Source of the DNA: Chiloscyllium plagiosum
Lineage: Eukaryota
Direction: 5' to 3'
Assembly: GCF_004010195.1 (NCBI RefSeq)
Contig: NC_057749.1
Coordinates: 6,965,416-7,029,415, forward strand
Length of the DNA stretch: 64,000 nt
Shown here: positions 5,451-60,732 of the stretch, piece by piece
Layout: each line of letters begins with the position of its first letter
Position numbering within the stretch: the first letter of the stretch is position 1
Notes under the pieces: generated by a model
Told to the model about the DNA's origin: nothing
Databases searched by the model: none
Seen by the model: the letters and a program-made list of their open reading frames with translations, nothing else
Made by a program: the position numbers and the translations under genes

Positions 5451-5477
5451 CGAAATGCTTGGTCTCATTTTTCTGGA

Positions 5478-5681
5478 GAAAGTGATGACTGCAGATGCTG
5501 GAGATCACAGCTGAAAGATGTGTTGCTGGAAAAGCGCTGCAGGTCAGGCAGCATCCAAGGAGCAGGAGAATCGACGTTTCGGGCATAAGTCCTGAAGAAG
5601 TGCTTATGCCCGAAATGTCGATTCTCCTGCTCCTTGGATGCTGCCTGACCTGCTGCGATTTTCCAGCAACACATTTTTCAG
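5478..5681. mobile_element. Short fold-back Penelope-derived element, family A, carrying a hammerhead motif
   Basis: Inverted arms (tgttgctggaaaagcgc...tcgacgtttcgggcataag / cttatgcccgaaatgtcga...ttccagcaaca); CTGAAGA at 5592 and GAAA at 5612; 14-bp TSD ctcat(t/g)tttctgga at 5464-5477 and 5682-5695. Confidence 0.75.
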
Positions 5682-5785
5682 CTCATGTTTCTGGAACCGA
5701 CATCCTGAGACTCAAAATAAGAGATGCCAACTGACTCATGCCTCCAAACTGGTACCCCCTGGTGGTACCCCCTGGTACCACCCCC

Positions 5786-6996
5786 GTTTTCACTGTCAAC
5801 AGGGGTGGTACCAGGGGACTGGAGAGTGGCGAATGTTGTGCCCCTGTTCAAAAAAGGGAATAGGGATAACCCCAGGAATTACAGGCCAGTTAGTCTTACT
5901 CCGGTGGTAGGCAAAGTAATGGAAAGGGTACTGAGGGATAGGATTTATGAGTATCTGGAAAGACACTGCTTGATTAGGGACAGCCAGCACGGATTTGTGA
6001 AGGGGAGGTCTTGCCTTACANNNNNNNNNNNNNNNNNNNNNNNNNNNNNNNNNNNNNNNNNNNNNNNNNNNNNNNNNNNNNNNNNNNNNNNNNNNNNNNN
6101 NNNNNNNNNNNNNNNNNNNNNNNNNNNNNNNNNNNNNNNNNNNNNNNNNNNNNNNNNNNNNNNNNNNNNNNNNNNNNNNNNNNNNNNNNNNNNNNNNNNN
6201 NNNNNNNNNNNNNNNNNNNNNNNNNNNNNNNNNNNNNNNNNNNNNNNNNNNNNNNNNNNNNNNNNNNNNNNNNNNNNNNNNNNNNNNNNNNNNNNNNNNN
6301 NNNNNNNNNNNNNNNNNNNNNNNNNNNNNNNNNNNNNNNNNNNNNNNNNNNNNNNNNNNNNNNNNNNNNNNNNNNNNNNNNNNNNNNNNNNNNNNNNNNN
6401 NNNNNNNNNNNNNNNNNNNNNNNNNNNNNNNNNNNNNNNNNNNNNNNNNNNNNNNNNNNNNNNNNNNNNNNNNNNNNNNNNNNNNNNNNNNNNNNNNNNN
6501 NNNNNNNNNNNNNNNNNNNNNNNNNNNNNNNNNNNNNNNNNNNNNNNNNNNNNNNNNNNNNNNNNNNNNNNNNNNNNNNNNNNNNNNNNNNNNNNNNNNN
6601 NNNNNNNNNNNNNNNNNNNNNNNNNNNNNNNNNNNNNNNNNNNNNNNNNNNGGCCAGGGAGATTAGTGTGGAGTGTGGCAGGGAGCACCGAGTGGAGTGG
6701 GGCAGGGAGTGCCCCACTTTTTCCCCGGGTACAACAGAGTGTTACAAGGGGACGTAAATTTAAGGTGAAGGGTGGAAGGTATAGGGGAGATGTCAGGGGT
6801 GGGTTCTTTCCCCAGAGAGTGGTGGGGGCATGGAATGCGCTGCCTGTGGGAGTGGTAGAGTCAGAATCTTTGGTGACCTTTAAGCGGCAATTGGATAGGT
6901 ACATGGATGGGTGCTTAAGCTCAGACAAATGTTTGACACAACATCGTGGGCCGAAGGGCCTGTTCTGTGCTGTATTGTTCTATGTTCTATGTTCTA
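5786..6996 (+). mobile_element. Young 5'-truncated CR1 LINE spanning the assembly gap
   Basis: RT-start motifs WRVANVVPLFKKG..NYRPVSLT..QHGFVKGRSCLT, CR1 ORF2 C-terminus (FFPQRVVGAWNALP..FKRQLDRYM), and a (tgttcta)n tail. Confidence 0.9.
6021..6651. other. Assembly gap (N run)
   Basis: 631 consecutive N. Confidence 1.
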
Positions 6997-7164
6997 AACT
7001 GACTGGAGACATGGGTTCAAATCCCACAATGCCAGATGTTGGGATTCAAATTCAAGAAATATCTGGAATAACAAGCTAGTCTGCGACCATCTCCCCACCC
7101 TTGATGATTGTGAGAATCTGCCGGGTTCAAGAATGTCCTTTAGAGAAAAAGTGACTCCAGACCC

Positions 7165-7430
7165 ATACAGAATGCCTACCGTGCAAAAAAGGCCATTCGG
7201 TCTATTGACTCTACACCAACTCTCCGAAGAGTAACCCCCCCACCCCCCAATTAACCCAATATTTATCACAACTAATCCACCTTTGGGCTGTGGAAGGAAA
7301 CTGGAGCACCCATACAGACACTGGGAGAATCTGCAAACTCCACACACACAGTTACCCTCAAAGATGGGAATTGAACCTAGGTTCCTGATGCTGTGAGGCG
7401 GACTGCTAATCACTGTGCCATCCATGCCAC
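7165..7430 (-). mobile_element. HE1 SINE, nested in a family-2 SINE (~7000-7490)
   Basis: Reverse complement of the HE1 head (tggcacagtgattagcagtcc..cctcacagc) and the tgtggagtttgca core. Confidence 0.8.
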
Positions 7431-8050
7431 CCACAACAATGTGGTTTGATTCTTCACTACCCTCTGGGCAATTAGGGATGGGCACCATCCTAAAAACAAA
7501 CTCAAAATCCATTAGTCAGCTTCAGCAAGCATCAGAGTAAAGAAATTTCTTTTCCACTAAATCATTTTCTGCATATGTGAGGGCTTCGTATTGCAATTAA
7601 AGTGAAATCTTTCTTTTTGGCAACTTTTAATATCCGGAACATGGACACCCCCCACCAATTCACCATACCCCACATAATAGCTTCATCTATCATAAATTCT
7701 TCACCTTAAAATTAATCTTCTCCTTTTAATGGCCTGTGTTCATCCAACACTCCTCATTCTCGAAAGTAAATAATTCATTCAGAAATTAATCCTGACTGAG
7801 AATTACCTACTGTGTAAAATAAGTCCTCAGAAATGGACTGTTCAATCAAATATCCTGGTAAGTACAGTGTTTCCAACAGAAGAGACTCCCTGCATCTGTT
7901 ATATCCACATGCTCATAGTTATAAAAATAAGTTAGCCTGATAACGAAGCAGTGATTCGCAGAATCTCAGAATTGTTAAAATGCAGAAGTAGGCCATTTGG
8001 CCCATCTTGTCTGTTCTGGCTCTTCAAATGAGCAATGCGCCTATGGCCTA

Positions 8051-8365
8051 GTGTGGCACAGTGGTTAGCGCTGCTACCTCACAGCAGCAAGAACCCAGGT
8101 TCAATTGTACCCTCAGATGACTATCAGTGTGGAGTTTGCAGACTCTCCCCGTGTCTGCAGTGGTTTGCTCTGGGCACTCTGGCTTCCTCCCACAGTCAAA
8201 CAATATGTAGCTTAGGTGGATTGGCCGTGGGAAATTGTCCGTCGTGTCCATGGATGTGCAGCCTTGGTAGTTCAGCCATGGGAAAGGCAAAGTCACAGGG
8301 ATGGGGTGGGATGCTCTCTGGAGGGTTGGTGTGGACTCAATGAACCAAATGGCCTGCTTCCATAC
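8051..8365 (+). mobile_element. HE1 SINE
   Basis: tggcacagtggttagcgctgctacctcacagc head, tgtggagtttgca core and CR1-like tail. Confidence 0.85.
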
Positions 8366-8815
8366 TTCCATTTTATGTCTTTGCCTGATAAACCTGTGTA
8401 CTCTTCCCTTTCAGATGATAAACGATTTCTCTCTCAAGCATTCGATGGAACCCACCTTCACCACACTCTCTGGCAACTTAAACCACTGACTGCATGAAAA
8501 ATATTGTTCTGTGTTTGCATCATTTTGCGAATTACTTTGAAAGATACAATTATTTGTTTCTAGTAAACTTGTTTGCTATAAAACATAATTCATTTACTGG
8601 TGGTATTCGCTTCTCATCTATGTTGCAATATTGACATGCACCTTTGAAAATGTGTTTTGTTATACATACTTTTGAAAAATTCAGTGGATGGAATTGTGAA
8701 CATGTTCAAGGCAATGGGGAAAAATTTTAATGTGACAAAACATCTGGATTTGGGTTGGATGGGAGGTCAAACTGTATCCTTAACTCAGCTGACTTCCGTT
8801 TGCAGGTTTGAATGG

Positions 8816-9017
8816 GCACGATGTGGACAAAGCCAGAAGTCACATGACACCAGGTTATAATCCAACAGGTTTAATTGAAATCACAAGCTTTCAGAGCGCT
8901 GCTCCTTTGTGAGGTGACGTGCAGTCCACTCCACTTCACCAGATGAAGGAGCAGCATTCTGAAAGCTTGTGAAATCAGATAAACCTGTTGGACTATAACC
9001 GGTGTCGTGTGACTTCT
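8816..9017. mobile_element. Short fold-back Penelope-derived element, family B (degenerate hammerhead)
   Basis: Inverted arms caccaggttataatccaacaggttt / aaacctgttggactataaccggtg; core agatgaaggagcagcattctgaaagctt; 12-bp TSD aggtttgaatgg at 8804-8815 and 9018-9029. Confidence 0.75.
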
Positions 9018-9555
9018 AGGTTTGAATGGAGGCAGACCATAGGGGTTTTGACTAACTAACTTGTGGGAGGCATGTTGCCACTTTGAATACAATAACGTGA
9101 TTTGAAACCTCTTTTTTAGGTCCTATTGAGAAGGGCTGGGAAGCCAAGCAGTAAAATTAAGGTGCAGCGAATATTTTCATTCATCTCCTGGGTGCAGAGT
9201 ACTTGTGCAAACTACCCTTCAGGAACTAACTAACAATCCAATCTTTCCAATATCTCTTGACTTCCCCACAAATCTTTCCATCTTTTCCCCTCCCCCAGAA
9301 CATCGATTTTCCCCAAGCTCCTGACACCAGCAACCAGATCTATCCTGTCAGCCCCAGAGGTGAATCTTTTCCCCTAGGAATTGAAAGGTCCCCTTTTCTC
9401 TGGGATTGAAAACTCCCCAATCTTGTCCTCTGGCCTCTTCCATATTTTAAACTAGAACCCAAGCTTTTCCATCAAGTGTCACAAAGCTAGTCCTTTTTTT
9501 TGTTAAAATCTGTTCCTTGGCTCAGGGATACTCTAACCTTGATTTTTCTCATAGG

Positions 9556-10352
9556 GGTAATAAACCAGGCTGGGCTCCGATCAGACTGGTTTGGTACGGA
9601 GATGAAAAGGATTTTGAGAGGCCTTTTATTTATGCGTAAACAGATGAGACTTCAGGCCAAATTGGTCATGTTTTAGAAGTGACCTATATAATGAAAGGGG
9701 AGTGGTCAGCTCTCTATCTGAGCAGTTTAGCTCAGGCCAGAACTAGTTATGAGTTAAACAGTGAGCTGTGTGGAAACTTTCTCTTCTCTCCTTTTGAATG
9801 TCAACCTGTAAGCATTTGATCCTCTCTTGTACTGTGTTTTAAAGGGGGTTTGCTTATTGGGAATGTTGTGTGTGTTCAGAACAACATATTTAAGTCTAGT
9901 TTGGATAGACTGGTAATCAACCTCGCTAACTTTAGATTAGATTAGATTACTTACAGTGTGGAAACAGACCCTTCAGCCCAACAAGTCCACACCGACCCAC
10001 CGAAGCGCAACCCACCCAGACCCATTCCCCTACATTTGTCCCTTCACCTAACAACACGGGCAATTTAGCATGACCAATTCACCTAACCTGCACATTTTTG
10101 GACTGTGAGAGGAAACCGGAGCACCCGGAGGTAACCCGCACAGACACGGGGAGAATGTGCAAACTCCACACAGTTAGTCGCCTGAGGTGGGAATTGAACC
10201 CGGGTCTCTGGCGCTGTGAGGCAGCAGTGCTAACCACTGTGCCACCGTGCCGCCCACTTATTCCGGTAATTTTCACTGTACACTTACTGAAACAAACTGG
10301 TCTGCGCTGCCTGCTTAAGAATGTTTTGAGTGGTCTGGCTTAGTCCATAACA
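9556..10352 (+). mobile_element. Probable solo LTR interrupted by an HE1 SINE
   Basis: Ends in tggtctggcttagtccataaca, similar to the end of the 44055-44591 element; contains a TATA-like tatataa; non-coding. Confidence 0.45.
9932..10255 (-). mobile_element. HE1 SINE (young, full length)
   Basis: Near-consensus; (ttaga)n tail; highly similar to the copy at 50991-51309. Confidence 0.92.
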
Positions 10353-10894
10353 AAAGGAACCTGCCAATGGGTTTTACCACATGTCCTGATCAGGTTAAAA
10401 TTCACAGGGCTCAAAACCACATGACTTAGGAGCGCGAGTTGGCAAGTCAGCCCCTTGAGTCTGCTCTTCCATTCAATAAGTTGAATTCAATAATATTGAG
10501 AAAAGACATTTGGTTGAAACTTGGACTCAACAGGACATTTCACAAGGATACTAATTCATGGGGAAAACATTTTAACGGTACTGGGAAAGAGTGCAAATTG
10601 GTTGGCACATAGACTCTGAATAGCCGAGATGTTGCCTTGCTGAATCCACCAGTTAATGATGATTGACATATAATTGTGAGACTTTGTTTAAATTTTGAAC
10701 TTGCGTTTACTTTTCCCATCAAATTGGTGATTTGTCCATCCTGTCAGGTCCCTTAAAGACATAAAATTTCAATATGATCATCTCTCAATCTTCTGAACTC
10801 TGACAAATTTTGGCTGAACCTTCCTCTATTCCATCATCCCAGCAATTAATTGAGTGAAGCTTCTCTAAATTGTTCTAGTGCAATTGCACATTCT

Positions 10895-11088
10895 CTCTGT
10901 GTCTACGTGGGTTTCCTCTGGGTGCTCTGGTTTCCTCCCACAATCCAACGATGCACAGGTTAGGTGGATTGGCCAACGGATATGCAGGGTTAGAGAGAGA
11001 GGGGAGGGGTCTGGGTGGGATGCTCTTCAGAGGGCCATTGTGGACTCAATGGGCTGAATAGCCCACATCTACATTGTAGGGATTCTAT
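10895..11088 (+). mobile_element. HE1 SINE, 5'-truncated
   Basis: gggtttcctctgggtgctctggtttcctcccacaatcc...gtagggattctatg. Confidence 0.75.
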
Positions 11089-11829
11089 GGAAGATGACTG
11101 GTCTATGACCATCTTAAGCTCTCATATCATGGGAACCATTTATAAAATTTGCAAACATGCACCCATTCACTTGCAGCTTTCCAGCTAATGTAAGCGGCTG
11201 ATCCTAATGTACTTTGGAATTACAGATTTATCCATCAGTGAGGCTATTGGGGATGGGTCATAAATGCCTGGACTAGCCAGCAACGACCACATCCCATAAA
11301 CAAACAGAAAACAAATTGCACAAAGAACAGTTCTTCCTGAAACATCCGTGCCTACAATTTTCAAACAAGCCAGCAAATGCCAACCAATGAGCACAAATGG
11401 GATTGAGTCATCAGGCTTTGAGATCAGATTTCCAGGAGCTCTGGGAGGGGAACTGCAGCCGGGACAACATGTTGCTACACCCTTGTATGAAGGTTGTGAA
11501 ATCAAACTGTGCACAATTAGCTGAGAACGTGTAATCATCTCTGTGAGAAATTTCTCCATCTGTAGCTTCAAAGAAGGTGTTAACCTGTTCACTTTAAATA
11601 GGCCAATACCTCCCTTAAAAAGGGAGATCGAGAAACATTCGTACAGATGTATCCGTTTTAATCTCACACGGTCTGATTCCAACCCATCAGTTTGTGGCAT
11701 TCTCAAAAATTATTAGTATACTGGCAGTTCACAATAGAGGTATCAACTTTGAATGAATTGACAACCAAAATTTGAGATATTTGGGATGGATAATCAGTCC
11801 TCAGTCCCCAGCAAGGCCTGTAAATCGAA

Positions 11830-12340
11830 TGCCAATTCCATTTCTAACCCATTCCATATCTAACCCTAATTTCACATCAAACCAAATTCTATACCTAAAC
11901 CCAATTCCATATCTAACAGTAATTCCACATCAAATCCCAATTCCAAATCGAACCCAATTCCGTATGAAAGCCCAATTCTATATCCAACCCCAATTACACA
12001 TCAAACCCAAATTTCATACCTAACCCAAATTCCAAAGTGAATCCCAATTTCAGGTTAAATCCCAAATTCAGGTTAAATCCCAATTCCATATCTCACCCCA
12101 TTTCCATATTTCACCCCAATTCCATATCGCATTCCAATTCCATATTGCACCCCAATTCCATATCTCATCCCAATTCCATATTGCACTCCAATTCCATATC
12201 TCACCCCAATTCCATATTTCACCCCAATTCCATATCGCATTCCAATGCCATATTGCACTCCAATTCCATATCACACCCCAATTCCATATTTCACCCCAGT
12301 TCCATATCACACTCCAATTCCATTTCTAATCCCATATTCT
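11830..12340. repeat. 18-bp minisatellite (consensus ccccaattccatatYKca)
   Basis: Regular 18-bp units over ~12078-12330 with degenerate units upstream; this explains the periodic ORFs (HPNSIS)n, (WNWGEI)n and (YGIGVR)n. Confidence 0.92.
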
Positions 12341-14841: not shown

Positions 14842-15168
14842 GCATGGTGGCTCAGTGGTTAGCACTGCTATCTCACAGCGCTAGGGACCAGAGTTTGATT
14901 CCAGCTGTCCATGTGGAGTTTGCACATTTTTCCCGTGTGTTTGTGTGGGTTTCCTCCGGGTGCTCTGGCTTCTCCCCACAGTCCAGGTTAGGTGGATTGG
15001 CCATGCTAAATTATCCCGTAGAGCCCAGGGATGCGCAGGCTAGGTTTGATTGGCCATGGTAAATGCAGGGATAGAGTAGAGGGGTGCATCTGGGTGGGAT
15101 GCTCTTCGGAGGGTGGGTGTGGACTCGATTGGCTGAATGGCCTGCTTCCACACTGTATGGATTCTATG
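14842..15168 (+). mobile_element. HE1 SINE
   Basis: gcatggtggctcagtggttagcactgc head through cacactgtatggattctatg tail. Confidence 0.88.
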
Positions 15169-15399
15169 ATCACCAGATACTTGGGCTGTGCAGAGGATGT
15201 GAATAGAACTACATAAATGCAAGTCTTCATTTATAGTCATTGCGATTGGTTATTAGGTAGTTTTCCAGAATATAATTGACCCATAAACAACAAATGTAAT
15301 GGCATTTCTTCCAATGATGGAATCAATCAGGGTCTGTATACTGGGCAATCACTCTTTCCTTTTGTCCACTTCAGTTATGGAGATACAATGGAGTAGTTG

Positions 15400-17385: not shown

Positions 17386-17429
17386 AACAAAGATCCCATG
17401 AAAAGAATAAAGAGAAAAAAATATCTTTA

Positions 17430-19885: not shown

Positions 19886-20115
19886 AACAAAGAATAGATG
19901 ATAATGACATCATATAACTTGATGAATATTATTAAAATCTATTTCTACCCTTTCATTCTTGGATTTGGATAATTCACTTGTCCAGATTGTTTTTGAAGTC
20001 TATCAATGAATCCCAGTGAAAATGTTGAAAAAGTCCACCGGCACAATGCTATCCTTTAGTCCACCACTAACTCAATCTGGACCATTGCTCTGTCCCTTTT
20101 CCAAAATGATTACCA

Positions 20116-20319
20116 GGTAAAAACAATGACTGCAGATGCTGGAAACCAGATTCTGGAGTAGAGTGGTGCTGGAAGAGCACAGCGTTCAGGCAGCATCCGA
20201 GGAGCAGGAAAATCGACGTTTCGGGCAAAAGCCCATAGGGCTTTTACCTGAAACGTCGATTTTCCTGCTCCTCAGATGCTGCCTGAACTGCTGTGCTTTG
20301 CCAGCACCACTCTATTCCA
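20116..20319. mobile_element. Short fold-back Penelope-derived element, family A
   Basis: Inverted arms around gaaaatcgacgtttcgggcaaaagccc / gggcttttacctgaaacgtcgattttc; perfect 14-bp TSD caaaatgattacca at 20102-20115 and 20320-20333. Confidence 0.8.
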
Positions 20320-20748
20320 CAAAATGATTACCACTCTCTGTGCCTTTTCTTCCATAGTATCATTGGGCAGTTAATCTTTCCTGCCCATTAATCTTCCCTG
20401 TGGCTCCACTCCCCAACTGTCTCTTTAGTTCTGAAGAAGTGTCATACCACGCTCAAAATATTCACTCTATTTCTCTCTCAACAGATACTGCCAAGCTTGC
20501 TGAGTTTCAACACCATTTTCTGTGCTCGCCCCATTACTTCCCCTCATCACTACTTCCAGCCTTGAATAAAATTAACGACCCAACTCCGATAGTTCTTCAC
20601 AGTAAAGAATTCCACAGATTCACTACCCCCTGAGAGAAACACAAATGCTCACCTCAATCATAATTGGTCGACACCTTAGAGATTTGCTCGTCAACCTATT
20701 TAGAGATGTTCTTACACACCTCTGCAGCAGATGGGATTTGAACCTGGG

Positions 20749-21412: not shown

Positions 21413-21413
21413 T

Positions 21414-24430: not shown

Positions 24431-24513
24431 AAAGATTCATAAGTCTACTCACTCGATGGACTGGTTCTGAGTTGGCTGGTCAGAGTCAATGTACTGTGTC
24501 CATGTAAATAAAG

Positions 24514-24738
24514 GTGAAAATGTGTTGCTGGAAAAGCGCAGCATCCAAGGAACAGGAGAATCGACGTTTCGGGCATAAGCCCTTCTTCACATGTAAATAA
24601 AGCCCTTCCTGATGAAGGGCTTTAGCCCAAAACATTGATTTTCCTGCTCCTCAGATGCTGCCTGACCTGCTGTGCTTTTCCAGCACCACTCTAATCTTGA
24701 CTCTGATCTCCAGCATCTACAGTACCCACTTTCGCCTA
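24514..24738. mobile_element. Two family A Penelope-derived short elements in opposite orientation at one site
   Basis: The 13-mer catgtaaataaag occurs at 24501, 24590 and 24739, bracketing a minus-type arm (24514-24589) and a plus-type arm containing CTGATGA (24603-24738). Confidence 0.75.
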
Positions 24739-25102
24739 CATGTAAATAAAGAGTTACTCGGTGATGGGATACCAGCCTCTGTACAGTTATTTCTGTGACA
24801 CCACCCATGGTGATGTCGTCAGAGATTATCCTGCCATGTTATACACCTATACACCAGTTTCTGTTAACACACACATGACTCTGTAACCTTTACCAGCTAG
24901 TCCTTCATGGAGAATACTCTCAAAACCTTGCAAATATAAGACTAAAGTTCAAGGAGTTACTCCTTCCTTTCATTTTATTCCATGAACCATCATCAATAAC
25001 CCAACTAAAAATTATTTTTGCCAACTTTATTTCAAGTAAGAGGAGAAAAGCAAAACAGTGCAAAGGTTTCAACCTTAATGTGGGATCCTGAGGGTCAGAG
25101 AT

Positions 25103-28378: not shown

Positions 28379-28407
28379 TCGGTTTCTTCCTCTTCGGTTT
28401 CTTTCCT

Positions 28408-29556
28408 CCATGGGATCTCCGCTATCAGGATTCATGGCAAAAGCAGTAATGCAAAGACTAGAACAAACAGCCCTCCCAACCATCAAACCAAAAATCTGGG
28501 TCCACTACGTCGATGACACCTTTGACATCACAAAACGAAACAAGATAGAAGAGACATTTAACATCATCAACAACACCCTCACAGACATAAAGTTCACCAA
28601 GGTGGAAGAAACAGACAAAACACTCGCATTTCTGGACGTCACAGTCGAAAGAACGGACAACGGAGAACTACAAACCTGCGTATACAGAAAACCGACAAAC
28701 ACTGACCAAATACTTAACTACACCAGCAACCATCCCAACACACACAAACGAAGCTGTATCAGAACACTATTCCAATAAGCCACCACACACTGCAGCACAG
28801 ACGAATTTCGGAAAACAGAGGAGAACCACCTATACAACGTATTCAAGAAGAATGGATGCCCAAAAAATACAATCTGCAGATTCCTGAAGAACAAACCACG
28901 ACAAGCAGACCAAACACAGCCAGAAACCTTAACCACCTTACCATACATCAAAGAAGTTTCAGCAATGACAGCCAGACTACTAAGACCCCTCGGAAACGTA
29001 GTAGCACACAAACCCACCAACACTCTCAAACAAAAACGAACAAACTTAAAAGACCCAGTACATCCCTTGGGCAAAACCAACGTCGTCTTACAAAATTCCA
29101 TGCAAGGACTGCCACAAACACTACATAGGACAAACTGGAAGAAAGTTAGCCACAGGATACACGAACACCAGCTAGCCACAAAAAGACATGACCTTCTCTC
29201 CCTCGTAGCCCTACACACGGAAGAAAAAAACCACAATTTCGACTGGGACAACATATCTATCCTGGGACAGGCTAAGCAAAGACATGCCAGAGAATTCCTA
29301 GAGACCTATCACTCCAACCACAATGCCATAAACAAACACATAGATCTAGATACCATCTATCAACCCCTCAGAAAATGAACAGGAAATGACATCACCACAA
29401 ACCTCAGGAACCCCATCCAGGACAAGCATATAAATAGAAAGCAGGAGACAACAGTTTTGCTTCACTTGGAGGTCTCCACTGATGATGTTACCGAGCCAGG
29501 TAATGAAACGTCTGGATATCAAACCTACAGCTCAGCGAGCAAATCTACACCCTAAA
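28408..29556 (+). mobile_element. 5'-truncated Penelope-like retroelement (RT C-terminal half, GIY-YIG endonuclease, 3' pLTR), pseudogenised
   Basis: RT motifs MGSPLSG, HYVDDTF, LAFLDV, VYRKPTNTD and LPYI. GIY-YIG motif VV(fs)YKIPCKDCHKHYIGQTG..RIHEH..AREFLE. In-frame stop at 28776-28778 plus frameshifts. Confidence 0.93.
29471..29520 (+). ncRNA. Minimal type I hammerhead ribozyme motif in the Penelope 3' region
   Basis: ggtctcca-CTGATGA-t-gttacc-gagcca-ggtaat-GAAA-c-GTC-tggatatc. Stem I ggtctcca/tggatatc has 7 of 8 pairs, stem II has 6 pairs (one G-U), and stem III is the palindrome ACGT. Predicted cleavage after C29512. Confidence 0.8.
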
Positions 29557-50663: not shown

Positions 50664-50677
50664 AAACAGGAGTGTCA

Positions 50678-50977
50678 AGAGGTGGGCACCACAGGGAGTG
50701 GAGTGTTTTATTGCCCCCTCCAACTCTATTTTGATTTAATCCCTTCCCTACCCTTCACTTTTTGGATCACGCAGCACATTGCCCTTTGATGTGAAGGGCA
50801 CTGCTTGTTATTGACCACTCGGGTGTTTCCTTTCTTCCTGGTGGTGGAATATAAGTAAAGATTTACACACTTGTTGCTCTTCACTGTGCCTTACACCTGC
50901 ACACACACGATATGGGTACCAGGGAAAAATAAGAACTACCACTGTCAGGCTGTAGTGAGGGGGGGGAGGGGGGGGGA
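50678..50977 (+). mobile_element. Tx1/L1-clade LINE 3' end (5'-truncated)
   Basis: Begins with RWAPQGVECFIAPSNSILI*, which resembles the ORF2 C-terminus of fish/shark Tx1 elements as recalled; followed by a 3' UTR; agtgtca duplicated at 50671 and 50978. Confidence 0.55.
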
Positions 50978-50990
50978 AGTGTCAGAGGTT

Positions 50991-51309
50991 TTAGATTAGA
51001 TTAGATTACATTACAGTGTGGAAACAGGCCCTTCGGCCCAACAGGTCCACACCGACCCGCCGAAGCGTAATCCACCCATACCCCTACATTTACCCCTTAC
51101 CTAACACTACGAGCAATTTAGCATGGCCAATTCACCTGACCTGTACATCTTTGGACTGTGGGAGGAAACCGGAGCACCCGGAGGAAACCCACGCAGACAC
51201 GGGGAGAACGTGCAAACTCCACACAGTCAGTCGCCTGAGGTGGGAATTGAACCCGGGTCTCTGGCGCTGTGAGGCAGCAGTGCTAACCACTGAGCCACCG
51301 TGCCGCCCA
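50991..51309 (-). mobile_element. HE1 SINE (young, full length)
   Basis: (ttaga)n tail; near-consensus with CpGs retained. Confidence 0.92.
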
Positions 51310-51639
51310 CTCTGAGATCTTCACTCTGAGATCTGGCTCTGACGGAGCTTGATCAGTGTCAAGGAATCTCCATGTGTAAGTAATAGTTGACTTGATGATG
51401 GGATACAGGCCTCTGTGGAGTTATTTCAGAGGAGTCAAAGAGTGGGAGGAGTCTGGGGCTCACTATCACATGAAGTGATTCAGAGGAAAGCTGGTCAATA
51501 AATGTGGAAGCAAAGAATAGGAAGGTGTGCTAGGAGGTTCAGATGAATGTTAGAGGGATGGAGAGGGGAGGATGAGGCTCCTACGGCATAGAGTAGTTGG
51601 ATTAAGTTGGCTTTTTCCATTCTATGACCTTGGAGGAGA

Positions 51640-51845
51640 TGAGTGAGGCACTGGAAAAGCACAGCAGGTCAGGCAGCATCCGAGGAGCAGAAGAATCAAT
51701 GTTTCATGCATAAGCCCTTCATTGGGATTCCCACGCCCAAAACATTGACTGTCCTGCTCCTTGGATGCTGCCTGACCAGCTGTGCTTTTCCAGCAACACA
51801 CTCTCGACTCTGATCTCCAGAATCTGTAGTCCTCACTTTCTCCAA
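51640..51845. mobile_element. Family A fold-back element
   Basis: ctggaaaagcacagcaggtcaggcagcatcc / ggatgctgcctgaccagctgtgcttttccag; TSD cttggaggaga on both sides. Confidence 0.75.
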
Positions 51846-51856
51846 CTTGGAGGAGA

Positions 51857-52205
51857 CGGTGGCATAGTGGTAATGTCACTCAGTTAGTAATCTGGACACC
51901 CACGGTAATTCTCATAGGAAGGTGAGCTTAAATCCCATCATGACAATTGCTGGAATTTAAATTCATTTAATAAACCTAGTCCCAGTCATGGTGAAAAGGA
52001 CAACTACCACTTACTGTTTGCAAAATGCACCCACTTCTCTAGGAAAGGGAAATCTTTAACAGGTCCGTCCTACATGTCACTCGAAACCTACAGCAACATG
52101 GATGACTCTTATCTGCCCTCTGAAATAGGGGCAAACCAAGGTCAATTAAGGATGGGCAAGAAATGTTAGCCTTGATAGCAATGCCCACATTCCATGAAAG
52201 AAAAT
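51857..52205 (+). mobile_element. Family-2 tRNA-derived SINE
   Basis: ggtggcatagtggtaatgtcact..tagtaatc head; caattaaggatgggcaagaaatg..atgcccacattccatgaa tail. Confidence 0.7.
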
Positions 52206-52217
52206 AAAATCTACTCC

Positions 52218-54088
52218 ACTTATGAGAGCCTGAATTCTTAAAAAACGTTCATCCCTTCTGCCTGCAACCCATTCTGTCTTAAGCTGCTGAAGTTGAACCT
52301 TCAATTAGGATGGTGAGTGTGAAAGTTAAAATTAAACAGGACACAAGGGCATCAGAGAAAGATAAGTAAGACCGTCTACTCTCCCTAACTGTTTTGTGTT
52401 TATATCCAGTGTCTCATTTCTCCAGGGAGAATACATGTTTGTAGGTGGGGTTGTAGGAACAGTATGCATTGTAATGGAAAGAGAGCTCAAGTGACTGTGA
52501 TTGGTTGGGTGGGCTAGTCAATCATTAACCATTTGCCGATTTTACTTTGATGTGCTTGCACTGGCTGGGTCAGTTGGCTGGACAGCTGGTTTACAATGCA
52601 GAGTGATGTAAAGAGCATGGGTTCAATTCCCACACCAGCTGAGGTCACCATGAAGGACTCTCCTTCTCTATCTCTCCCCTCACTTGAGGCTTGGTGACCC
52701 AATCATTAAACCACCTCCAGTCGTCTCTCATTAATGAGAAAGCAGCCCGGTGGTCTGGCAGAAACCTTCTGGCCAAATGCTTCAGCCGCCTGGAGAGAGT
52801 GAAGTGGAAGCGAGCAAATGAATGAAAATAAGCAGAACTTTAAAATAAAGAACTACGGATGCTGCAAATCAGAAATGAAAGCAGAAATTGTTGGATAAAG
52901 CTCAGCAGGTCTGGCAGAATTAACAGACAGAAAGCTAAATTAATGTTTCGGGTCTAGTGACCCTACCTCAGAACTGTGTGTGTAATAAGTATCCATGATA
53001 TAGAGGTGCTGGGGTTGGACTGGGGTGTACAAGGTCAGAAGTCACACAATGCCAGGTTATAGCCCAACAAGTTTATTTGTGAATGCTGCCCCTTTGTCAG
53101 GTAATGAAGGAGCAGTGCTCTGAAAGCTTGTGGTTTCAAATAAATCTGTTGGGCTATAACTTGGTGTCGTGTAACTTCTGACCTTGTAAGAAATAGAACT
53201 TCTTAATTTCACTCCTGAGACCTCAAGTACGTTTTGCAATTTCGGAGAGAAAAAGAAATGTTGCGCAAACTAAAGGGTTATAGGCACCTTGCCAGAGTTT
53301 TAAAATTCAAAATGAAGCTACAATTAAATAGAATCTCTTGCCACCAGGGGGTGAAAACAATTGCGACCAAGATTTCGAGGGTTGTAGTAGATGGCAGGCT
53401 GTCATGGGGAGCTGTCCGTTCAGCACCACTACAGCTTCCACAATCAGCATCAGACTGAAGAACAAAACAAGAGGCACCAGAAACAGAAGAACCATTCTCA
53501 CAGCACTATAAACCTGCTCCTTTATAAACATACTCTTTTAGGTAAAATACACTATAGGACTGAATAAAATTGAAACCCAGGCGGTGAAATCATTTCTTTA
53601 ATTACAGCAATTATCTATCTTTATTGAGATATTTCTCACTGGCTTTTCTTATGCATGTGTTAACACTACTAGACCCATTGGTGCATTAACCTGGAGGGAC
53701 TCATTCTCTAACCTGAATCACAGATGCATCACAAAGGAGGATGTTGCTTCATAGTCCATTCTGCTTAAAGAACTCCATCTGGGTAATGGCATTTCTGCAC
53801 CTTATCCACATCATGCTCTGTGGCACTTCATACATTATAACAGTGACTACACTTCCAGCGTTGGCTGTGAAGTGTACTGACATGTCCCAGAGTTGTGAAA
53901 AGTGCAACATAAAGATGTATTTATTTTTAACTGAAATGCCTCAATTCTGATGGAATTTTGTTCCTATTAATAGTGTTTAACTTATGAGAGCCTGAATTCT
54001 TAAAAAACTTTCATCCCTTCTGCCTGCAACCCATTCTGTCTTAAGCTGCTGAAGTTGAACCTTCAATTAGGATGGTGAGTGTGAAAGT
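52218..54088 (+). repeat. 109-bp direct repeat pair (52218-52326 and 53980-54088)
   Basis: acttatgagagcctgaattc...ggatggtgagtgtgaaagt; 108/109 identical. Confidence 0.95.
52995..53184. mobile_element. Family B fold-back element
   Basis: ggttggactggggtgtacaagg..caggttatagcccaaca / atgaaggagcagtgctctgaaagcttgtg..ctgttgggctataac. Confidence 0.72.
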
Positions 54089-54670
54089 CAGTGCAGAGTC
54101 AGAGCTGCAGCCTCCGTTGTTAGACATAAGACAACTGGCTTCCTTGAGGAGGGCTCCAATTTTAACAAGTCTCTGCTATCTTTAGCTACCAACAGAAGCA
54201 ATAGCCTATTTTAAAACAACAGTGTTCATTTTCTTTCATAACAATGCTGACAGTGTTGTTGATAAGCTGAATGTTTATACTTGTACTGGGAGCTGCTGTG
54301 TAAATGAGAGTAAGGATCACAGTGCAGCCTGAGCCCTTTCTTAACTGCATGTGAGAATGTGGAAACTTGCCATTGATGTGCCAGTCAGATTTTTTTCTCT
54401 CTGTTCTTTGAATGGCTGAAGAGAGACAGCATCTCTGTTGCTGGCCCACCAAGACATTTCAGAAAGCATTAAAAATCAACCTCTACACAACAGCCTTCAC
54501 AAGTTGCTGAACTGCAATGAAAATATTGCAGTCAATGGTACTTGTCAAAACTGATAGAAATTAATAGTTGTCAGTCAGGAGCCAGCATAAATCCAACTAG
54601 TGGGATCTATTTAGTTGGTTCTGCATTCCCTCACTGATTTTGTCAAGTGCTGCTATGGCTGATGTGCAGC

Positions 54671-54965
54671 AACACAGACACAGACACAGACACACACAGA
54701 CAGACAGACACACACACACACAGACACATATTCAGTCCACACACACTCACCCACACACATAAACACATATTCGATTCGCGCACGCATACAATACACACAC
54801 ACTAACCCACACACACACAGACACATATTCAATCCACATAGATACAAACATACAATACATACACATTCACTCCCCCCCGACACACACACAAAATGTACAG
54901 ACACACTCACACAGACACACACAACAGAGAGACAAACAACACACTCTCTCTCTCTCTCTCTCTCT
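54671..54965. repeat. Imperfect (CA)n microsatellite followed by (CT)n
   Basis: Seen directly; produces the spurious Cys/Val-rich ORF 54653-55105. Confidence 0.95.
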
Positions 54966-55969
54966 GCTATCTTTCCCCTTATGATCCTGGATATTGTCGG
55001 TTTATGAGTTCTGGTAATGCACTCAGTGTCAGCCGAGACAGTCAGCATGCATTTGATCAAGAAAGGCATCAAAGCTTTCCTGACCCATTCGACATGAACA
55101 CACATGTACCACCAAAGGCAGAAATCAGAAGTATACTGTTTTTTTACAATTTCTCCTTCTATACCTGATGGACGTGAAAATCATTTACGTGCTGCCCGTT
55201 TTCGCCAACCTGGCTGAGGTCAATGAATTTCACACAAGCCAGAGATAAATGAGGGAATATCCTTATTCATATAGCTCTGCTCCAAACTGTACAGTACCAA
55301 AGAAGTTACCATTTCCTGTGTCCGGCACTAATCTTGAGGCCATTTTTTTGCCACACATACCACCAGCATTTCCCAGCCACAAGTGAGAATGTAACATCAT
55401 GCACCTAACCCATGATTAAAGACATAGTCACAGAGTTATTTTACAGCATGGCGCATCATGCTTGCAACAGCCATCAAACATCCTAATCCCATTTTCCAGC
55501 AATTGACCCTTAGCCTGCTATGCTAGAGTGTTTCAAATGCTCATCAAATTAGTTCTCAAATTTCTTGAGAGTTCCTGCCTCACACACCAATTCAAAGAAG
55601 TGATTTCCGTAAACCCACAACTCTCTGGATGAAAACAAACCTGTCAAATCCTCTTCCAACCTCCTGTACTATAAAACTGTACCCCGGGTTATTGGTTCCT
55701 CTACTAAGGGGGAAACATTTCTCCCTGTCTATCTTATCTACGTGCCTCAGAAGAAAATCTCCAACCCCTCCTGAGCCTCTCTGCTTGCAGGCAAGCAATT
55801 CAACCAATCTAGTCTCTCTTTATTGCTGAAACATGCTATATCTCGCTTGTAATCACATCCTTCCTGTAAATTGGTGACCAGAACTGCACATCTACCCCAG
55901 CTTTGGCCTAACTAATGTTCATCATCACCTCCTTGCTCATGTCAGTGATGGATCAGAGTCACAAAACTG

Positions 55970-57435
55970 GCATACTTTGTTATGGGGAGCTCGCTGTGTG
56001 AAAATTGGCTGCCTCATTTCCAATATTCCAAACAATTCCTGCACTTCAAAAATATTTCAGAAGTGCTTGGGCTAATCCTGAAATTGTGAAAAGTGTTAAA
56101 TAAATGCCAGTGTTTTTTTTAAATTTTAATCTCCATGACATTTTAACAGAATGTTGCTGTGTCTTCATTTTTCTCTGAACTAAATTGAACAAAGTCGCAT
56201 TTAGAAGGCGCCTTCTGGAATTTCCTGAATATATGCATGCATTAAAATGTTTGTTTGACACTAACTGAAATTCTGTAGGGATCTCTTTTTTCATAAATCG
56301 TCATAAAATCATTGAATTTTTCAGCAGAGGAAAAAAACCCATTCGGCCCATTTAGTCCATGTCAGCTCTTCCAAAAGGGTGTCCAATTTAGTCACTTAGG
56401 TCAGCTTTCGCCCCTCACCCTGAGTGTGTGCAATTACTGATAAATCGAGTCTTGGGTCAGTGGGTTAACTATCATCTGCCTTGTCCTTCCAACCCACCAA
56501 CCATAAGGAGACGCCAGGAAATAAGAAGGATGCTAATTTGATTTTGAATATGGCTGCATTTCTTCATGAGAATGTTCCCTTATTTCCAAATGTGATCACC
56601 TTCCCTAAGGTTCCCAGTATGTGGCTCAGGGGTAAACCTTTTATTTGCAAACCATTGTGTGTAAGACAGGATAGATGCCATGAAGAGCCTGATGAAGAGC
56701 TTATGTCCGAAACGTCGACTCTCCTGCTCCTCAGATGCTGCCTGACCGGCTGTGTTTTCCAGCAACACACTCTTCGACTTTGATCTCCAGCATCTGCAGT
56801 CCTCACTTTCTCCTCCCGATTGACAACCAAAGGTCAGAGATTCCCAATACTCAGTGAAAGAACTAGAGAAGAAATTATTTCACACAAAGAATTGTTATAG
56901 TCTGGACTATGGTGAATAAAAGCTTGGCAGGATCAGATTACATGGGAACTCTCACAGGCAATTGGACACGTAGTTAAAAAGTGCACTCTTGCGGGGTGAG
57001 GGATGAAAGCTGAGGTAAGTGACTAAACTGGATGCCATTTTGGAAGAGTTGAGACAGACTAAACGGGCTGGGTAGGTTTTTCTCCTGTGTTGTAAAATTC
57101 AATGATTTTATGACGATTTATGAAAAAAAGGATTCATACCGTGTTTCAATTAGTGTCAAACATACATTTCAATGTGTGTGTATATTCAGGAAATTCCTGA
57201 AGGCCCCCTCTAAAAGCTTCTTTGCTCAAATTAGCTAAGAGAAATATAAAACGACAGCAGCATTCTGTTAAAATGTCATGGAGATTAAAATGAAAAAAAA
57301 AACATTTGTATTTACTTAACACTTTTCACACTCTCAGGGTATCCCCAAGCACTTCTGAAGTGCAGCAATTGTTTGGGACACTGAAAATGCTGCTGCCAAT
57401 TTTCACACAGCAAGCTCCCACAAGCAGCAATATGA
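55970..57435. repeat. Large imperfect inverted repeat: arms ~55970-56420 and ~56995-57435, spacer ~570 bp
   Basis: The arms align over ~450 bp, with perfect blocks such as attttaatctccatgacattttaacagaatg (31 nt) and tttttcataaatcgtcataaaatcattgaatttt (34 nt). Confidence 0.92.
56688..56814 (+). mobile_element. Family A single-arm element with a hammerhead core
   Basis: CTGATGA(56689)-agagcttatgtcc-GAAA-cGTC-gactctcctgctcc..cagtcctcactttctcct. Confidence 0.75.
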
Positions 57436-57700
57436 CAAAACCTACTTTCAGCAAATGATGATTTTGTTGGTCAGGACAGCAGGGGGCACTGTCCTCCAAA
57501 TGGTGGTGTGGAAGCGCTTCTGTCCAGTGAGGAGGCGAAGCCCTGTTTGAAGGTCTCACCCAAATAACAGCACAGTGCCTCCTTACAGTTGCACTGGAAT
57601 ACCCACCTCCTTCATTTGTTTTAAGTTTCCAGATGGAGACCTGAACTCACAATCTTCAGAGCCAAGGTGAGACTCATACCAACTGAGCCACAACTGTGGG
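57305..57700 (-). mobile_element. Degenerate Deu-domain SINE
   Basis: Tail ccccaagcacttc..gccaattttcacacagcaagctcccacaa and head ctgaactcacaatcttcaga..ccaactgagccac (reverse complement). Confidence 0.5.
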
Positions 57701-59224
57701 TACAATGGAGATCACGTGCATTCCAGTGAGTTGGATTCCCTCCCCTGTTTAAAATCCTAACACAAAGAGTATTTTTACAAGCGTTGTTTATGTTCTTTGC
57801 TGAATATCAGGCAACTCTCTTGACTCTTCATTCTTCACTCTTTGCAGTACGCTCTGGTCATAAACACACCCATTAAAAAAAAGCTACATATTAACAGTCT
57901 GATCAGCACTAGACGCTTTATGAGCAAGTAAAATCATCTTCATTTTGGTCAGCTAATTAACGTAGGCCCCAGAGTTTGAATGTTCCAGTGGGGGTCAGTG
58001 AGCTAAAACCTAATTAATAGCAGCTCACAGCTGTGGATTGGGCTGGCAATTAATGCTGTCCCAAGTTAAAGCTCAGAACTCCCTGGATATTTGACATTGC
58101 TAACACTACCTCTGCATTTCCTGCACTAATAGAAGCGAGGAGTGGCAAGAGCTTAAACCGACCACCCCTCTCCCCGCCAATACTGATGTGTTTAGAAATT
58201 ACTTTCAGGGCTCCGAGCTGCAAGTTGCTATTTTTCCTTCAGGATCAAGAAGGAGCAAACCATTCCTGTTATTGCTTCTTCCCCATGTTCCCATTCACTT
58301 CGCCCACCTTCCTTCACAGAATTTCCTATATCTTTTGAAGAAAACAGTATCCAGGCATTCATTCTGCATTCAGTGAAATCTCCACCAAATTCCTTAAAAT
58401 TTACTCAAACATTCACTCCCTGCACCACAGTGATAGCAGGGTTCTGAACAATAAGATGCACTGCAACAACTCAGGTTCCTTCTAAACCTGTGACCTCCAT
58501 CAGCTTGAAGCAAAGGGGCACACACCAACTGCAGGTTCCCCTCTGAACCACATGCCATCCTGACTTGGTCAACAGATGTGAAGCTGGAAAAGCACAGCAG
58601 ACCAGACAGCATCCGAGGAGCAGGGAAGTCAATGTTTGGGGCTGAAACCCTTCATCCAGACTGGGGAAGGGGACTAACTATATCCTTGTGCCTTCATCAA
58701 TAGTCCAAAATCCTGGAACACTATCCCTGACAGTACAACATGTGTCCCTATAGCATGTGTCCACCATGATTCAAGAAGGCAGCTCACCACTACCCCCTCA
58801 AGGGAAATTAGCAATCAGAAACAAATACTTGCCTTGCCAGCAGTTGCGATACCCATGAGGAAGTGAGTGAAAATCACCCTGAGTGTGAAACCTTAGCCAT
58901 CAGGAAACAGCACAAGGCAACTTATCAGTAAAAGGTGGAGTTGGAGAAAATTTCAATCTAATTCGGTGTTGTCAACAATCTGCCAGGATTTAATATTCAC
59001 CGATGTCAATGCAGAATAATATTGAGGAGGGTGTCAAACTGGGATTCCACCTGACCTCCCCAATGAGATTCCCCAATAACACAACCATCAGGAGAGATTT
59101 GGATCCTGGGGAGTGCTACTGAACAAAGAGACCTTGAGGCACACAATCTTAGTTCCTCGAAGATGGAGTCGCAGGTACACAGGATGATGAAGAAGGTTTT
59201 TTTGTACAGTTCCCTTTATTGGTC

Positions 59225-59630
59225 AGAGCTGGGGTAGGGCTGATTGCAGGGAATGTAGGTAGCGGCGCATGGCTGCAAGCGTGGAGGGGAGGATCCGGAG
59301 GGAGGTCTGTTGTTGGAGGCTTCGGATTTGTTGCAGATACTGGTTGTCCTGGTTGGGTCCAAATCATGTTGGTCTGAACGTAGTCTGGAGTCCGTGCGGG
59401 GTCAGTCGGTTCCGTAGGCAGGTGCTGAGGAAGGAGATGTGGCTGTGGTAGCGAGTCTGTTTCAGGGTAAGAGGATTCGCAGTCGGTTAAAATCTTCTAG
59501 GAGAAAGTGAGGACTGCAGATGCTGGAGATCAGAGCCGAAAATGTGTTGCTGGAAAAGCGCAGCAGGTCAGGCAGCATCCAAGGAGCAGGAGAATCGACG
59601 TTTCGGGCATGAGCCCTTCTTCAGGAATCC
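59225..59630 (-). mobile_element. 5' segment of a Penelope-like element: hammerhead-bearing pLTR (family A sequence) running into a decayed ORF N-terminus
   Basis: Minus strand: cctgaagaagggctcatgcccgaaacgtcgattc, then ATG MLPDLLRFSSNTFSALISSICSPHFLLEDFNRLRIL, then LKQTRYHSHISFLSTCLRNRLTPHGLQTTFRPT*FGPNQDNQYLQQIRSLQQQTSLRILPSTLAAMRRYLHSL. The latter resembles PLE N-terminal regions (FL..C....L.P.G motif). Confidence 0.65.
59591..59630 (-). ncRNA. Minimal hammerhead motif (family A), core intact, on the CELF sense strand
   Basis: ggattc-CTGAAGA-a-gggc-tcat-gccc-GAAA-c-GTC-gattct: perfect 4-bp stem II, ACGT palindrome, stem I 5 of 6 pairs. Confidence 0.65.
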
Positions 59631-59929
59631 TAGTGCTGTAGGATGAGGGTTCAAACCTCACCTCAGCAGCAGGAATTTTACATTCGAATAATCAATCTGG
59701 AATTGAAAGCTATTCTCAATAATGGTGATCAAACCAACCAGCACAGATTGTCACTCAACTCATCTGTGCTGATGAGTGGGTCTACACATAGTACATGAAC
59801 AGCAGTTCAAGAGGATAGTTCACTACCAATTTCTCAAGAGCAATTAGGGACAGGCAATAAATACGGTTACAACTAGTGATGCCCAAATTCCATGAATTAA
59901 TAATAATAAAATCCTTTAAGGAAGGAAAT

Positions 59930-60732
59930 AGGTACATAGATCCTTGAAAGCTGCCACCCAGGTTGATAGGATTGTTAAGAAGCCTAACAGTGTGTTAACT
60001 TTTATTGGTAGAGGGATTAAGTTTCGGAACCATGAGATCATGCTGCAGCTGTACAAAACTCTGGTGTGGCCGCACTTGGAACATTACGTACAGTTCTGGT
60101 CACTGCATTATAGGAAGGATGCGGAGGCTTTGGAAAGAGTTTAGAGGAAATTTACTAGGATGTTGCCCTGGTATGGAGGGAATGTCTTACGAGATAAGGC
60201 TGAGGGACTTGAGTTTATTTTTGTTAGAGAGAAGAAGGTTGAGAGGTGGCTTAATTGAGGTATATAAGATAATCAGGGTTAGATAGGTTGGACAATGAGA
60301 GTCATTTTCCTTGGATAGTGATGGCTAGCATGAGGGGACATAGCTTTAAATTGAGAAATGATAGGTATAGGACAGATGTCAGAGGTAATTTCTTTACTCA
60401 AAGTGTAGTAGGGGCGTGGAATGTGCTGCCTACAACAGTAGTAGACTCGCCAAAATTAAGAAGGGCTCATGCCCGAAACGTCGATTCTCCTGCTCCTTGG
60501 ATGCTGCCTGACCTGCTGCGCTTTTCCAGGAACCCATTTTCAGCTCTGATCTCCAGCATCTGTAGTCCTCACTTTCTCTTCACCAAAATTAAGGGCATTT
60601 AAATGGTGATTGGATAGGCGTATGGACGATAATGGAATAGCGTAGATTAAATGGTTCAGATTGGTTCCACAAGTCGGTGCAATATCGAGGGCCGAAGGGC
60701 CTGTACTGCACTGTAATGTTCTATGTTCTATG
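59930..60732 (+). mobile_element. CR1 3' region with a nested family A element (60461-60582)
   Basis: MLQLYKTLVWPHLEHYVQFWS, RGHSFKL..FFTQSVVGAWNVLP and a tgttcta tail; the insert is flanked by TSD ccaaaattaag (60450-60460, 60583-60593). Confidence 0.9.

Follow-up and report, generated by a model that had tools for sequence, protein, structure and literature searches.

We analysed a 64,000-nucleotide stretch of the Chiloscyllium plagiosum genome (NCBI RefSeq assembly GCF_004010195.1, contig NC_057749.1, positions 6,965,416 to 7,029,415 of the forward strand; hereafter the window), in which a family of short repeats, referred to as family A, carries a motif of the hammerhead ribozyme type. From their anatomy, their ends and their continuity with longer sequences elsewhere in the genome, these repeats are most probably truncated heads of a Penelope-like element (PLE). 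A search of the window for GCCCGAAACGTC with at most one mismatch returned eight matches, compared with a mean of 0.02 over 100 shuffles, none of which reached eight; seven of these matches belong to family A, and the eighth (63739-63750) sits in an unrelated repeat. With a profile made from four copies, 12 arms were found at E < 1e-15, distributed over eight insertions, together with three weaker relatives. All eight places named in a preliminary description of this DNA (5478, 20116, 24514, 24603, 51640, 56688, 60461 and about 58585) were recovered by the profile search, and the best copy of the window, at 59222-59630 (minus strand), was absent from that list.

Positions on the unit are given below on a scale in which 0 is the G after GUC at the hammerhead cleavage site (window base 59596, minus strand, in the best copy). 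The 3' ends of the copies fall into two classes, at about +55 to +78 (site 1) and at about +96 to +120 (site 2), with 34 nt between the two sites; we refer to this intervening stretch as the tail. The best copy (59222-59630) is also the longest: it starts at -34 and comprises an intact minimal hammerhead (59597-59624), an ATG at +18, the tail and the start of a PLE open frame, with an internal gap of 114 nt and a frame broken by stops. Three further copies are solo. The unit at 56687-56815 (plus strand) extends from -30 to +98 (site 2) and has a nearly intact hammerhead with one mismatch in helix II; the unit at 60461-60579 (plus strand) is cut in CUGAAGA (-27), ends at site 2 and is flanked by a target-site duplication matching at 13 of 14 positions (60447-60460 and 60580-60593); the arm at 58572-58670 (minus strand) is old, ends at site 1 and has a mutated core. 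No target-site duplication was found at 56687-56815 or 59222-59630.

The other four insertions are head-to-head fold-backs, the several such structures of the preliminary description. At 5463-5690, the minus-strand arm with the tail (5463-5593) ends at site 2, is cut at its 5' end in helix II and is without the CUGANGA box, and the tail-less plus-strand arm (5584-5690) ends at site 1 by eye and keeps CUGAAGA, with a mismatch in helix II and the palindrome ACGU changed to AUGU. At 20116-20319, both the minus-strand arm with the tail (20116-20236) and the tail-less plus-strand arm (20237-20319) are cut in helix II, and a 14-bp target-site duplication (20102-20115 and 20320-20333) encloses the pair. 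At 51640-51843, a tail-less minus-strand arm with a mutated core (51640-51729) faces a plus-strand arm with the tail that is cut in loop II (51730-51843), between duplications matching at 12 of 13 positions (51627-51639 and 51844-51856). The remaining pair consists of a younger-type minus-strand arm (24514-24589), which ends at site 1 and is cut at core position C3, and an older-type plus-strand arm (24603-24738), which ends at site 2 and keeps CUGAUGA and helix II, with GAAA and both CpGs decayed. Here the 13-bp target CATGTAAATAAAG occurs three times: to the left of the younger inverted arm (24501-24513), between the arms (24590-24602) and to the right of the older, CpG-decayed arm (24739-24751). 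The region 24501-24751 thus looks like two separate insertions at an identical staggered cut, and the triple target hints at strong site choice or at homing beside an existing copy. A divergent relative at 52848-52973 (minus strand), with a mutated core and a GGGTC/GACCC helix II, belongs to another PLE tail family.

A minimal hammerhead of the Penelope type

In the intact copy the motif reads CUGAAGA, a bulged A, GGGC-UCAU-GCCC, GAAA, CG and UC, and five of the six pairs of helix I are formed. A strict descriptor (core boxes, an optional bulge, a G-C-closed helix II of 4-8 bp, GAAA, complementary 15.2/16.2 and UH) was run on 224 kb, made up of the window and a set of arbitrary genomic loci, and gave 11 hits, as against none in each of 20 shuffled sets. 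Eight hits are of the family-A type and three belong to a second hammerhead family (L045:4736-4764, L049:6286-6314 and L049:6395-6423), which has the same fold in other letters (GGAGC/GCUCC, an AGCU palindrome, predicted cleavage after UA, the same bulged A); the bulged A and the G-C closing pair are present in all 11. The minimal hammerheads of PLEs, as described in the relevant sections of PMC4209133 (Cervera & de la Pena 2014), have a CUGANGA box, a base between positions 9 and 10.1, a G10.1-C11.1 pair, a 4-bp helix II, GAAA, palindromic positions 15.2-16.2, no loop 3 and a short helix I. Every trait in that description is found here, the palindrome being ACGU in family A and AGCU in the second family, and nothing essential differs from it; particular to the present case are the cartilaginous-fish family, the GGGC/GCCC helix II and an ATG 18 nt past the cleavage site. 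Judged by its sequence, the motif is a minimal type I hammerhead of the PLE kind with a palindromic ACGU helix III, for which cleavage and a dimeric mode of action are predicted. The minimal core with stem II and a palindromic ACGT stem III put forward in the preliminary description therefore agrees with all features of the published PLE descriptor.

Most copies have lost this core. It is intact in only one of 13 window arms (the 12 family arms and the divergent arm at 52848-52973), namely that at 59597-59624, and another (56687, plus) has a single mismatch in helix II. Of the others, five break off within the core and six carry mutations, for the most part at the two CpGs of ACGUCG. The CTGA(A/T)GA box, said earlier to precede the motif wherever the copy is not truncated, does so at 5584 (plus), 24606 (plus), 56687 (plus) and 59467 (minus); the arms at 51626, 58572 and 52848 (all minus) and the CTGA-bearing arm at 24606 are mutated in core positions, mostly at CpG. 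We also inspected 16 young copies, chosen from the 40 best genome matches by identity over 0 to +66, a set that is unable to hold site-1 arms as top hits. By eye, about four of these 16 hammerheads are intact, the losses again being mostly at CpG, and such loss even in young copies fits neutral decay.

An Rfam scan of the window at gathering score gave no hammerhead match, a scan of five young copies at E values up to 10 gave no hammerhead family, and the predicted folding was no better than that of shuffled sequences for the motif (z -0.28), the unit (0.57) or the tail region (0.83). The Rfam models expect helix III, and both the Rfam and the folding nulls are thus expected for a motif without it. 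Fold-backs, including L065:171-264, match microRNA precursor models below threshold (mir-2432, 48.8 bits where the gathering score is 100); they might be annotated in error as microRNA genes or enter small-RNA pathways.

Continuity with a Penelope-like open frame

A search of the genome (3.56 Gb) with the 157-nt unit, beginning at -37, gave 2,536 candidates, and the 40 that were scored are 96-100% identical. At 30 genomic loci, a set skewed toward copies reaching -35, the unit continues past ...CACTTTCTCC into a common sequence, termed B, and an open frame could be read from the hammerhead through B over about 240 codons, as far as a stretch read as N, the first in-frame ATG being at +18. A conserved N-terminal domain of 190 aa (L033:1774-2343) lies further downstream; it shares 84-88% identity with three bamboo shark proteins, two of them carrying RVT_1, and 35% identity with two metagenome proteins that are 861-899 aa long (E 2.6e-21 and 1.2e-20). 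A scan of the metagenome protein P0008 revealed RVT_1 and GIY-YIG, which is the architecture of canonical endonuclease-bearing (EN+) PLEs. The Pfam scan of the L033 frame and of the 190-aa domain themselves returned no family, and PF28514 and PF26215, given in a precomputed listing, were not reproduced by it. The continuity of the unit with a PLE open frame in other genomic copies bears out the Penelope-like origin that had been suggested for these repeats.

Within the 64-kb window, no reverse transcriptase (RT) is linked to any family-A copy. The sole PLE RT-like stretch, at 28404-28874 (plus strand), is the unrelated remnant of a different, older PLE RT, with 28-31% identity to the proteins that the family-A domain retrieved; the earlier statement that none of the short elements encodes an RT was thus correct. 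None of the 16 young copies runs on into the open frame. The fold-back at 5463-5690 is followed, about 330 bp downstream, by a run of 631 bases read as N (6021-6651), and similar N runs stand right beside PLE heads at several genomic loci, where the RT coding part would fall.

Two 3' ends, unit length and abundance

The ends and the abundance of the copies were assessed in an arbitrary sample of 160 kb (about 151 kb non-N), taken at arbitrary round coordinates on 16 contigs. At a score of at least 30 bits, 46 arms were obtained in all, 18 of them from this sample. Site 1 accounts for nine of the 18 arbitrary 3' ends and site 2 for seven, with two elsewhere; in the window, the corresponding numbers are five, six and one arm running on (n = 12). 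The copies thus form a discrete length class of about 96 and 130 bp, as had been supposed, and not a smooth truncation series. The density in the arbitrary genome is about one arm per 8 kb, in keeping with the SINE-like (short interspersed element-like) abundance first suggested from the window; extrapolation gives about 4e5 arms, and family-A arms may form about 1-2% of the genome. L002 and L017 end at a third recurrent point, about +170, and L013 and L021 share a junction +170|-33; this point may mark another place at which reverse transcription starts internally.

Reads were mapped on window positions 59250-59700 from one RNA raw-read run (single-cell, poly-A) and from two contig sets of unknown kind (X1 and X2), which served for boundaries alone. 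Reads and contigs break at 59498-59501 (+95 to +98), at 59535-59539 (+57 to +61) and at 59628 (-32). The depth of the RNA run is 300-900 on the unit versus 1-2 on B and the open frame. Since 96% of the RNA reads continue into unrelated flanks, their source is many embedded copies, and they say little on a dedicated transcript. The run shows no site at which many molecules begin or end, its single-cell poly-A library being unsuited to show cleavage ends.

A sharp 5' end upstream of the cleavage site

The 5' ends spread overall from beyond -208 to +21, with a marked concentration some 30 nt upstream of the cleavage site: seven of 18 arbitrary arms end at -42 to -24, four at -23 to +5 and seven further upstream, and in the window eight of 12 end at -42 to -24, four at -23 to +5 and none further upstream. 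This break was resolved with the motif found at -32, TTCCTGA[A/T]GAAGG, which occurs with at most one substitution at 104 places in the fetched DNA, 29 with the long-form pseudo-long terminal repeat (pLTR) upstream and 75 without it. The A at -33 is kept in 60 of these 75 places, so that the 5' break is one nucleotide wide and lies 5 nt upstream of the CUGA box. The base before this A is C in 24, G in 21, T in eight and A in seven of the 60 places; among the 29 long forms, 27 have C there. Because the 30 loci found with a query starting at -37 are among the 104 places, complete heads are over-represented in this set; the peak at -33 recurs more weakly in the unbiased samples. The preliminary description had asked whether 5' ends or truncations pile up at the GUC site. 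Only two of the 46 arms end within 4 nt of it (L049 at -4 and L069 at -1), and the pile lies 33 nt upstream. The 5' ends at -33, instead of at the cleavage site, imply that the templates were uncleaved.

The -33 terminus is about as likely as not to be the transcription start of the PLE RNA, as its sequence context would suggest: the long form reads ...TCATTCC at -33, an A/T-rich box is seen by eye about 30 nt upstream, and the context fits the initiator consensus (YYANWYY-like). A non-templated G in 21 of the 60 junctions would fit copying of a cap, a signal that is suggestive only. In Drosophila Penelope, too, transcription begins within the pLTR, not far upstream of the hammerhead, according to the portions of PMC2377424 and PMC4209133 that deal with it. 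A splice acceptor at -33 was ruled out, the long form being without AG before -33.

Target-site duplications, fold-backs and two-head loci

Duplications with at least 10 matches flank 16 of 39 insertions, compared with none of 26 shifted controls, and several more are visible by eye among young loci where the automatic boundaries overshot. In the window, the preliminary description had most elements flanked by duplications of 11-14 bp. This is true of half of them: four of the eight insertions (20116-20319, 24514-24738, 51640-51843 and 60461-60579) have duplications of 12-14 matching bases, and the other four have weaker ones (eight of nine matches by eye at 5475-5690, nine of 10 at 58572-58670) or none.

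Head-to-head pairs number 33 in all, and 16 of them are short fold-backs (four in the window, three in the arbitrary sample and nine among the 16 young loci). In 15 of these 16, the tail is present on one arm only; the exception, in L042, is a divergent and older pair. At loci whose direct arm extends into B, six inverted arms terminate at site 1 and eight at site 2, and the inverted arm is the shorter one in every case. Many loci of the 30-locus set have a further arrangement, in which a head is followed by a variable length of B (end-points +156 to +424), a second head and then the duplication. Among the 15 loci with a clear second head, 11 have its start at -32/-33. Two direct-order hammerheads at one locus are 197-558 bp apart (mean about 313 bp over 17 spacings), and the junctions are mostly unique. 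We infer that such head-B-head junctions arise when a cDNA reaches the 5' end of its RNA and then continues on a second template. A propagating deletion derivative was rejected as their source, as 17 of 19 junctions are mutually distinct and only those of L013 and L021 are alike (+170|-33). None of the 19 tandem-repeat rows reported by TRF for the window is family A, and no fixed-period array of the family was found there.

Other repeats in the window

At 63324-63608, a 143-bp unit holding GGTGGCTCAG...CTCACAGTGCCAGGG is present twice at 98% identity. A similar stretch with a few bases different, GGTGGCAC...CTCACAGTGCCAGAG, stands beside a PLE copy in L010, and the unit is probably an abundant SINE-like repeat. 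The stretch 11832-12339 is a minisatellite of about 14 CCAATTCCATATCTAACC-like copies, its period being 18/36 bp.

Origin of the short units

In our interpretation, family A most probably consists of by-products, in the form of truncated heads, of an endonuclease-bearing PLE, made by the normal target-primed reverse transcription of this class. The unit would correspond to the last 33 nt of the pLTR/5' untranslated region, including the minimal hammerhead, followed by the first 45-80 nt of the open frame. Synthesis of the cDNA would begin internally on the RNA, at either of two fixed sites (about +61 and +97) that are separated by the 34 nt of the PLE 'tail'; the cDNA would reach the 5' end of the RNA, at -33, or halt sooner, the product would often be joined to a second, inverted and shorter arm, and integration would yield target-site duplications of 10-16 bp. 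If -33 is the start of the RNA, every PLE transcript has such a site about 100-130 nt downstream of its 5' end, and a start there would give a product of 96 or 130 bp. The hammerhead would be carried along uncleaved and would decay neutrally. The units end at the initiation site, and the enzyme of the anole PLE needs about 55 nt of RNA beyond it; by analogy, the units would be dead on arrival. The shared anatomy of the copies, their link to a PLE open frame, their discrete ends and the near absence of ends at the cleavage site are direct observations, and the separate, ribozyme-processed, retrozyme-like class of non-autonomous elements envisaged in the preliminary description does not agree with the continuity with the PLE frame, the PLE insertion signature, the lack of ends at GUC and the lack of a tandem array.

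Several points weigh against this interpretation. The RT/endonuclease part of the copies in this genome reads N; no intact autonomous master with this exact head was seen, and the architecture is taken from homologous proteins. A frame running from +18 into the RT is assumed from copies that, as read, have frameshifts. The extra G (21 of 60 junctions) is no more than suggestive, the RNA run shows no place where many molecules begin, and many of its reads cross -32 into the upstream pLTR (160 loose ends, consensus agreement 0.67). Seven of the 18 arbitrary arms extend further upstream, and ordinary truncation of longer templates therefore also occurs. A minor variant (G for A near site 1) is short in 16 of 16 copies, B being carried only by the window copy used as query. 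Finally, the samples are small.

A more specific proposal would be that -33 is the capped start of the PLE RNA and that the 96- and 130-bp units, in their hundreds of thousands, are the specific product of the initiation site closest to the 5' end of each transcript. We consider this combination fairly unlikely; if it were true, the copy ends would map the promoter and the enzyme start sites of a vertebrate PLE. In a bolder form, two RNAs paired through the ACGU palindrome would be copied from the two nicked target strands, giving fold-backs with a tail on one arm; the ribozyme would then be a dimerisation module in integration and not a cutter.

Among the alternatives to a by-product origin, the one that survives best is a self-propagating non-autonomous lineage, in which the 96-130 nt unit is itself transcribed and recopied and the ribozyme processes its RNA. 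The discrete unit length, the SINE-like density and the uniformly short minor variant are in its favour, and the concept of non-autonomous hammerhead elements is in print for other vertebrates, in the part of bioRxiv 10.64898/2026.07.22.740005 devoted to it. However, the depth ratio of about 1:400 predicts an all-short minor variant anyway, and the units stop exactly at the reverse-transcription start, downstream of which the anole PLE needs about 55 nt of RNA for its activity (PMC11167929). Moreover, there are no fixed-period tandem arrays, the ends are fixed and not permuted as they would be from a circular template, the 5' ends avoid the cleavage site, only about a quarter of the young hammerheads are intact by eye (about 4/16), with CpG losses as in neutral decay, and the RNA reads come from embedded copies, 96% of them entering unrelated flanks. 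We therefore regard such a lineage as unlikely. A retrozyme-style circle as template was ruled out by the fixed copy ends.

A slightly less probable alternative is plain 5' truncation of long PLE templates, the pile-up then reflecting stalling of the enzyme at a folded or protein-bound hammerhead and no discrete RNA end. The 5' ends that fall inside the motif (-23 to +5; 4/18 arbitrary and 4/12 window arms) and the fold-back axes at -15 and about -21, in helix II, would be in keeping with this reading, as would the seven of 18 arbitrary arms that reach further upstream. Yet the main peak is one nucleotide wide (60/75 junctions) and lies 5 nt beyond the 5' side of the motif, which has already been copied by then; the junctions to a second template are also exactly at -33, the non-templated base before it is G in 21 of 60 cases, and the folding energy is ordinary (z -0.28 to +0.83). 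A chance resemblance, i.e. a conserved coding or untranslated sequence with a small hairpin, could be argued from the lack of Rfam hammerhead matches up to E = 10, the ordinary folding and an activity predicted from sequence, but is very improbable, as all features of the PLE minimal hammerhead set out in PMC4209133 are present, including the bulge and the palindrome, the second family keeps the pairs with different letters, and the anole PLE hammerhead, in the same position between pLTR and open reading frame (ORF), cleaves when the element's protein is added (PMC11167929).

Comparison with known systems

Metazoan non-LTR (non-long terminal repeat) retrozymes, as characterized in the pertinent part of PMC7229834 (Cervera & de la Pena 2020), have a fixed head-to-tail monomer of about 170-400 bp, each with a canonical type I hammerhead in which loop 1 and loop 2 are in contact, and they are expressed as circular RNA. 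Going by that part and by the corresponding part of bioRxiv 10.64898/2026.07.22.740005 (Li et al. 2026), family A shares with retrozymes a hammerhead, non-coding units, abundance, co-occurrence with PLEs, kinship with the pLTR and, at some genomic loci, a second hammerhead in direct order. In contrast, family A has no fixed-period arrays, a minimal hammerhead without loop-loop contacts, fixed ends and continuity with a PLE ORF. The two retrozyme characters for which we looked, a fixed tandem period and a canonical hammerhead, are both absent. That vertebrate hammerhead repeats, including those of one cartilaginous fish, derive from PLE pLTRs is already in print in the preprint, at least in the passages bearing on these species. 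The mean spacing in our two-hammerhead loci, about 313 bp, compares with an average of 363 bp given there for its cartilaginous fish, and one may speculate that such loci are what its pipeline counts.

Insertions of canonical EN+ PLEs are reported, in the relevant section of PMC8557442 (Craig et al. 2021), to show a high degree of 5' truncation, partial tandems that form pLTRs and an adjoining inverted, 5'-truncated copy, with a 'tail' of 30-40 bp that is often present at one end only. PLE minimal hammerheads are, in the survey portion of PMC4209133, mostly single and located in truncated PLEs, some being paired on opposite strands 100-700 bp apart. For the anole PLE (PAc), the tail has been explained by reverse transcription from two adjacent internal sites about 110 nt into the ORF, the enzyme acts on both target strands, nicking and then extending each, hammerhead mutants left insertion unchanged, and no reads ended at the cleavage site (PMC11167929, Frangieh et al. 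2024). Family A shares with these elements the 5' truncation, the duplications, the inverted shorter arm, a tail of 34 nt, the hammerhead between pLTR and ORF and the uncleaved template. The start sites differ in position, lying about 45 and 79 nt into the putative ORF here and at 111-118 in PAc (PMC11167929). In family A the predominant 5' terminus is confined to a single nucleotide, 5 nt upstream of the core, a feature not stated for EN+ PLEs in the relevant parts of PMC8557442 and PMC11167929.

Family A thus falls within a repeat class known since 2014, of which it is an unremarkable case, and its sharp 5' end is only a mildly new detail. For repeat annotation, its share of the genome and its microRNA-like fold-backs are of practical use. 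Beyond this, the PLE reaction as it takes place in vivo is documented by dead copies in their thousands: two start sites 34 nt apart, a sharp 5' end of the template, a tail confined to one arm and no use of ribozyme-cleaved RNA. This in vivo record agrees with the one in vitro PLE study and could guide a census-based test of how the inverted and tandem structures of PLEs are formed.

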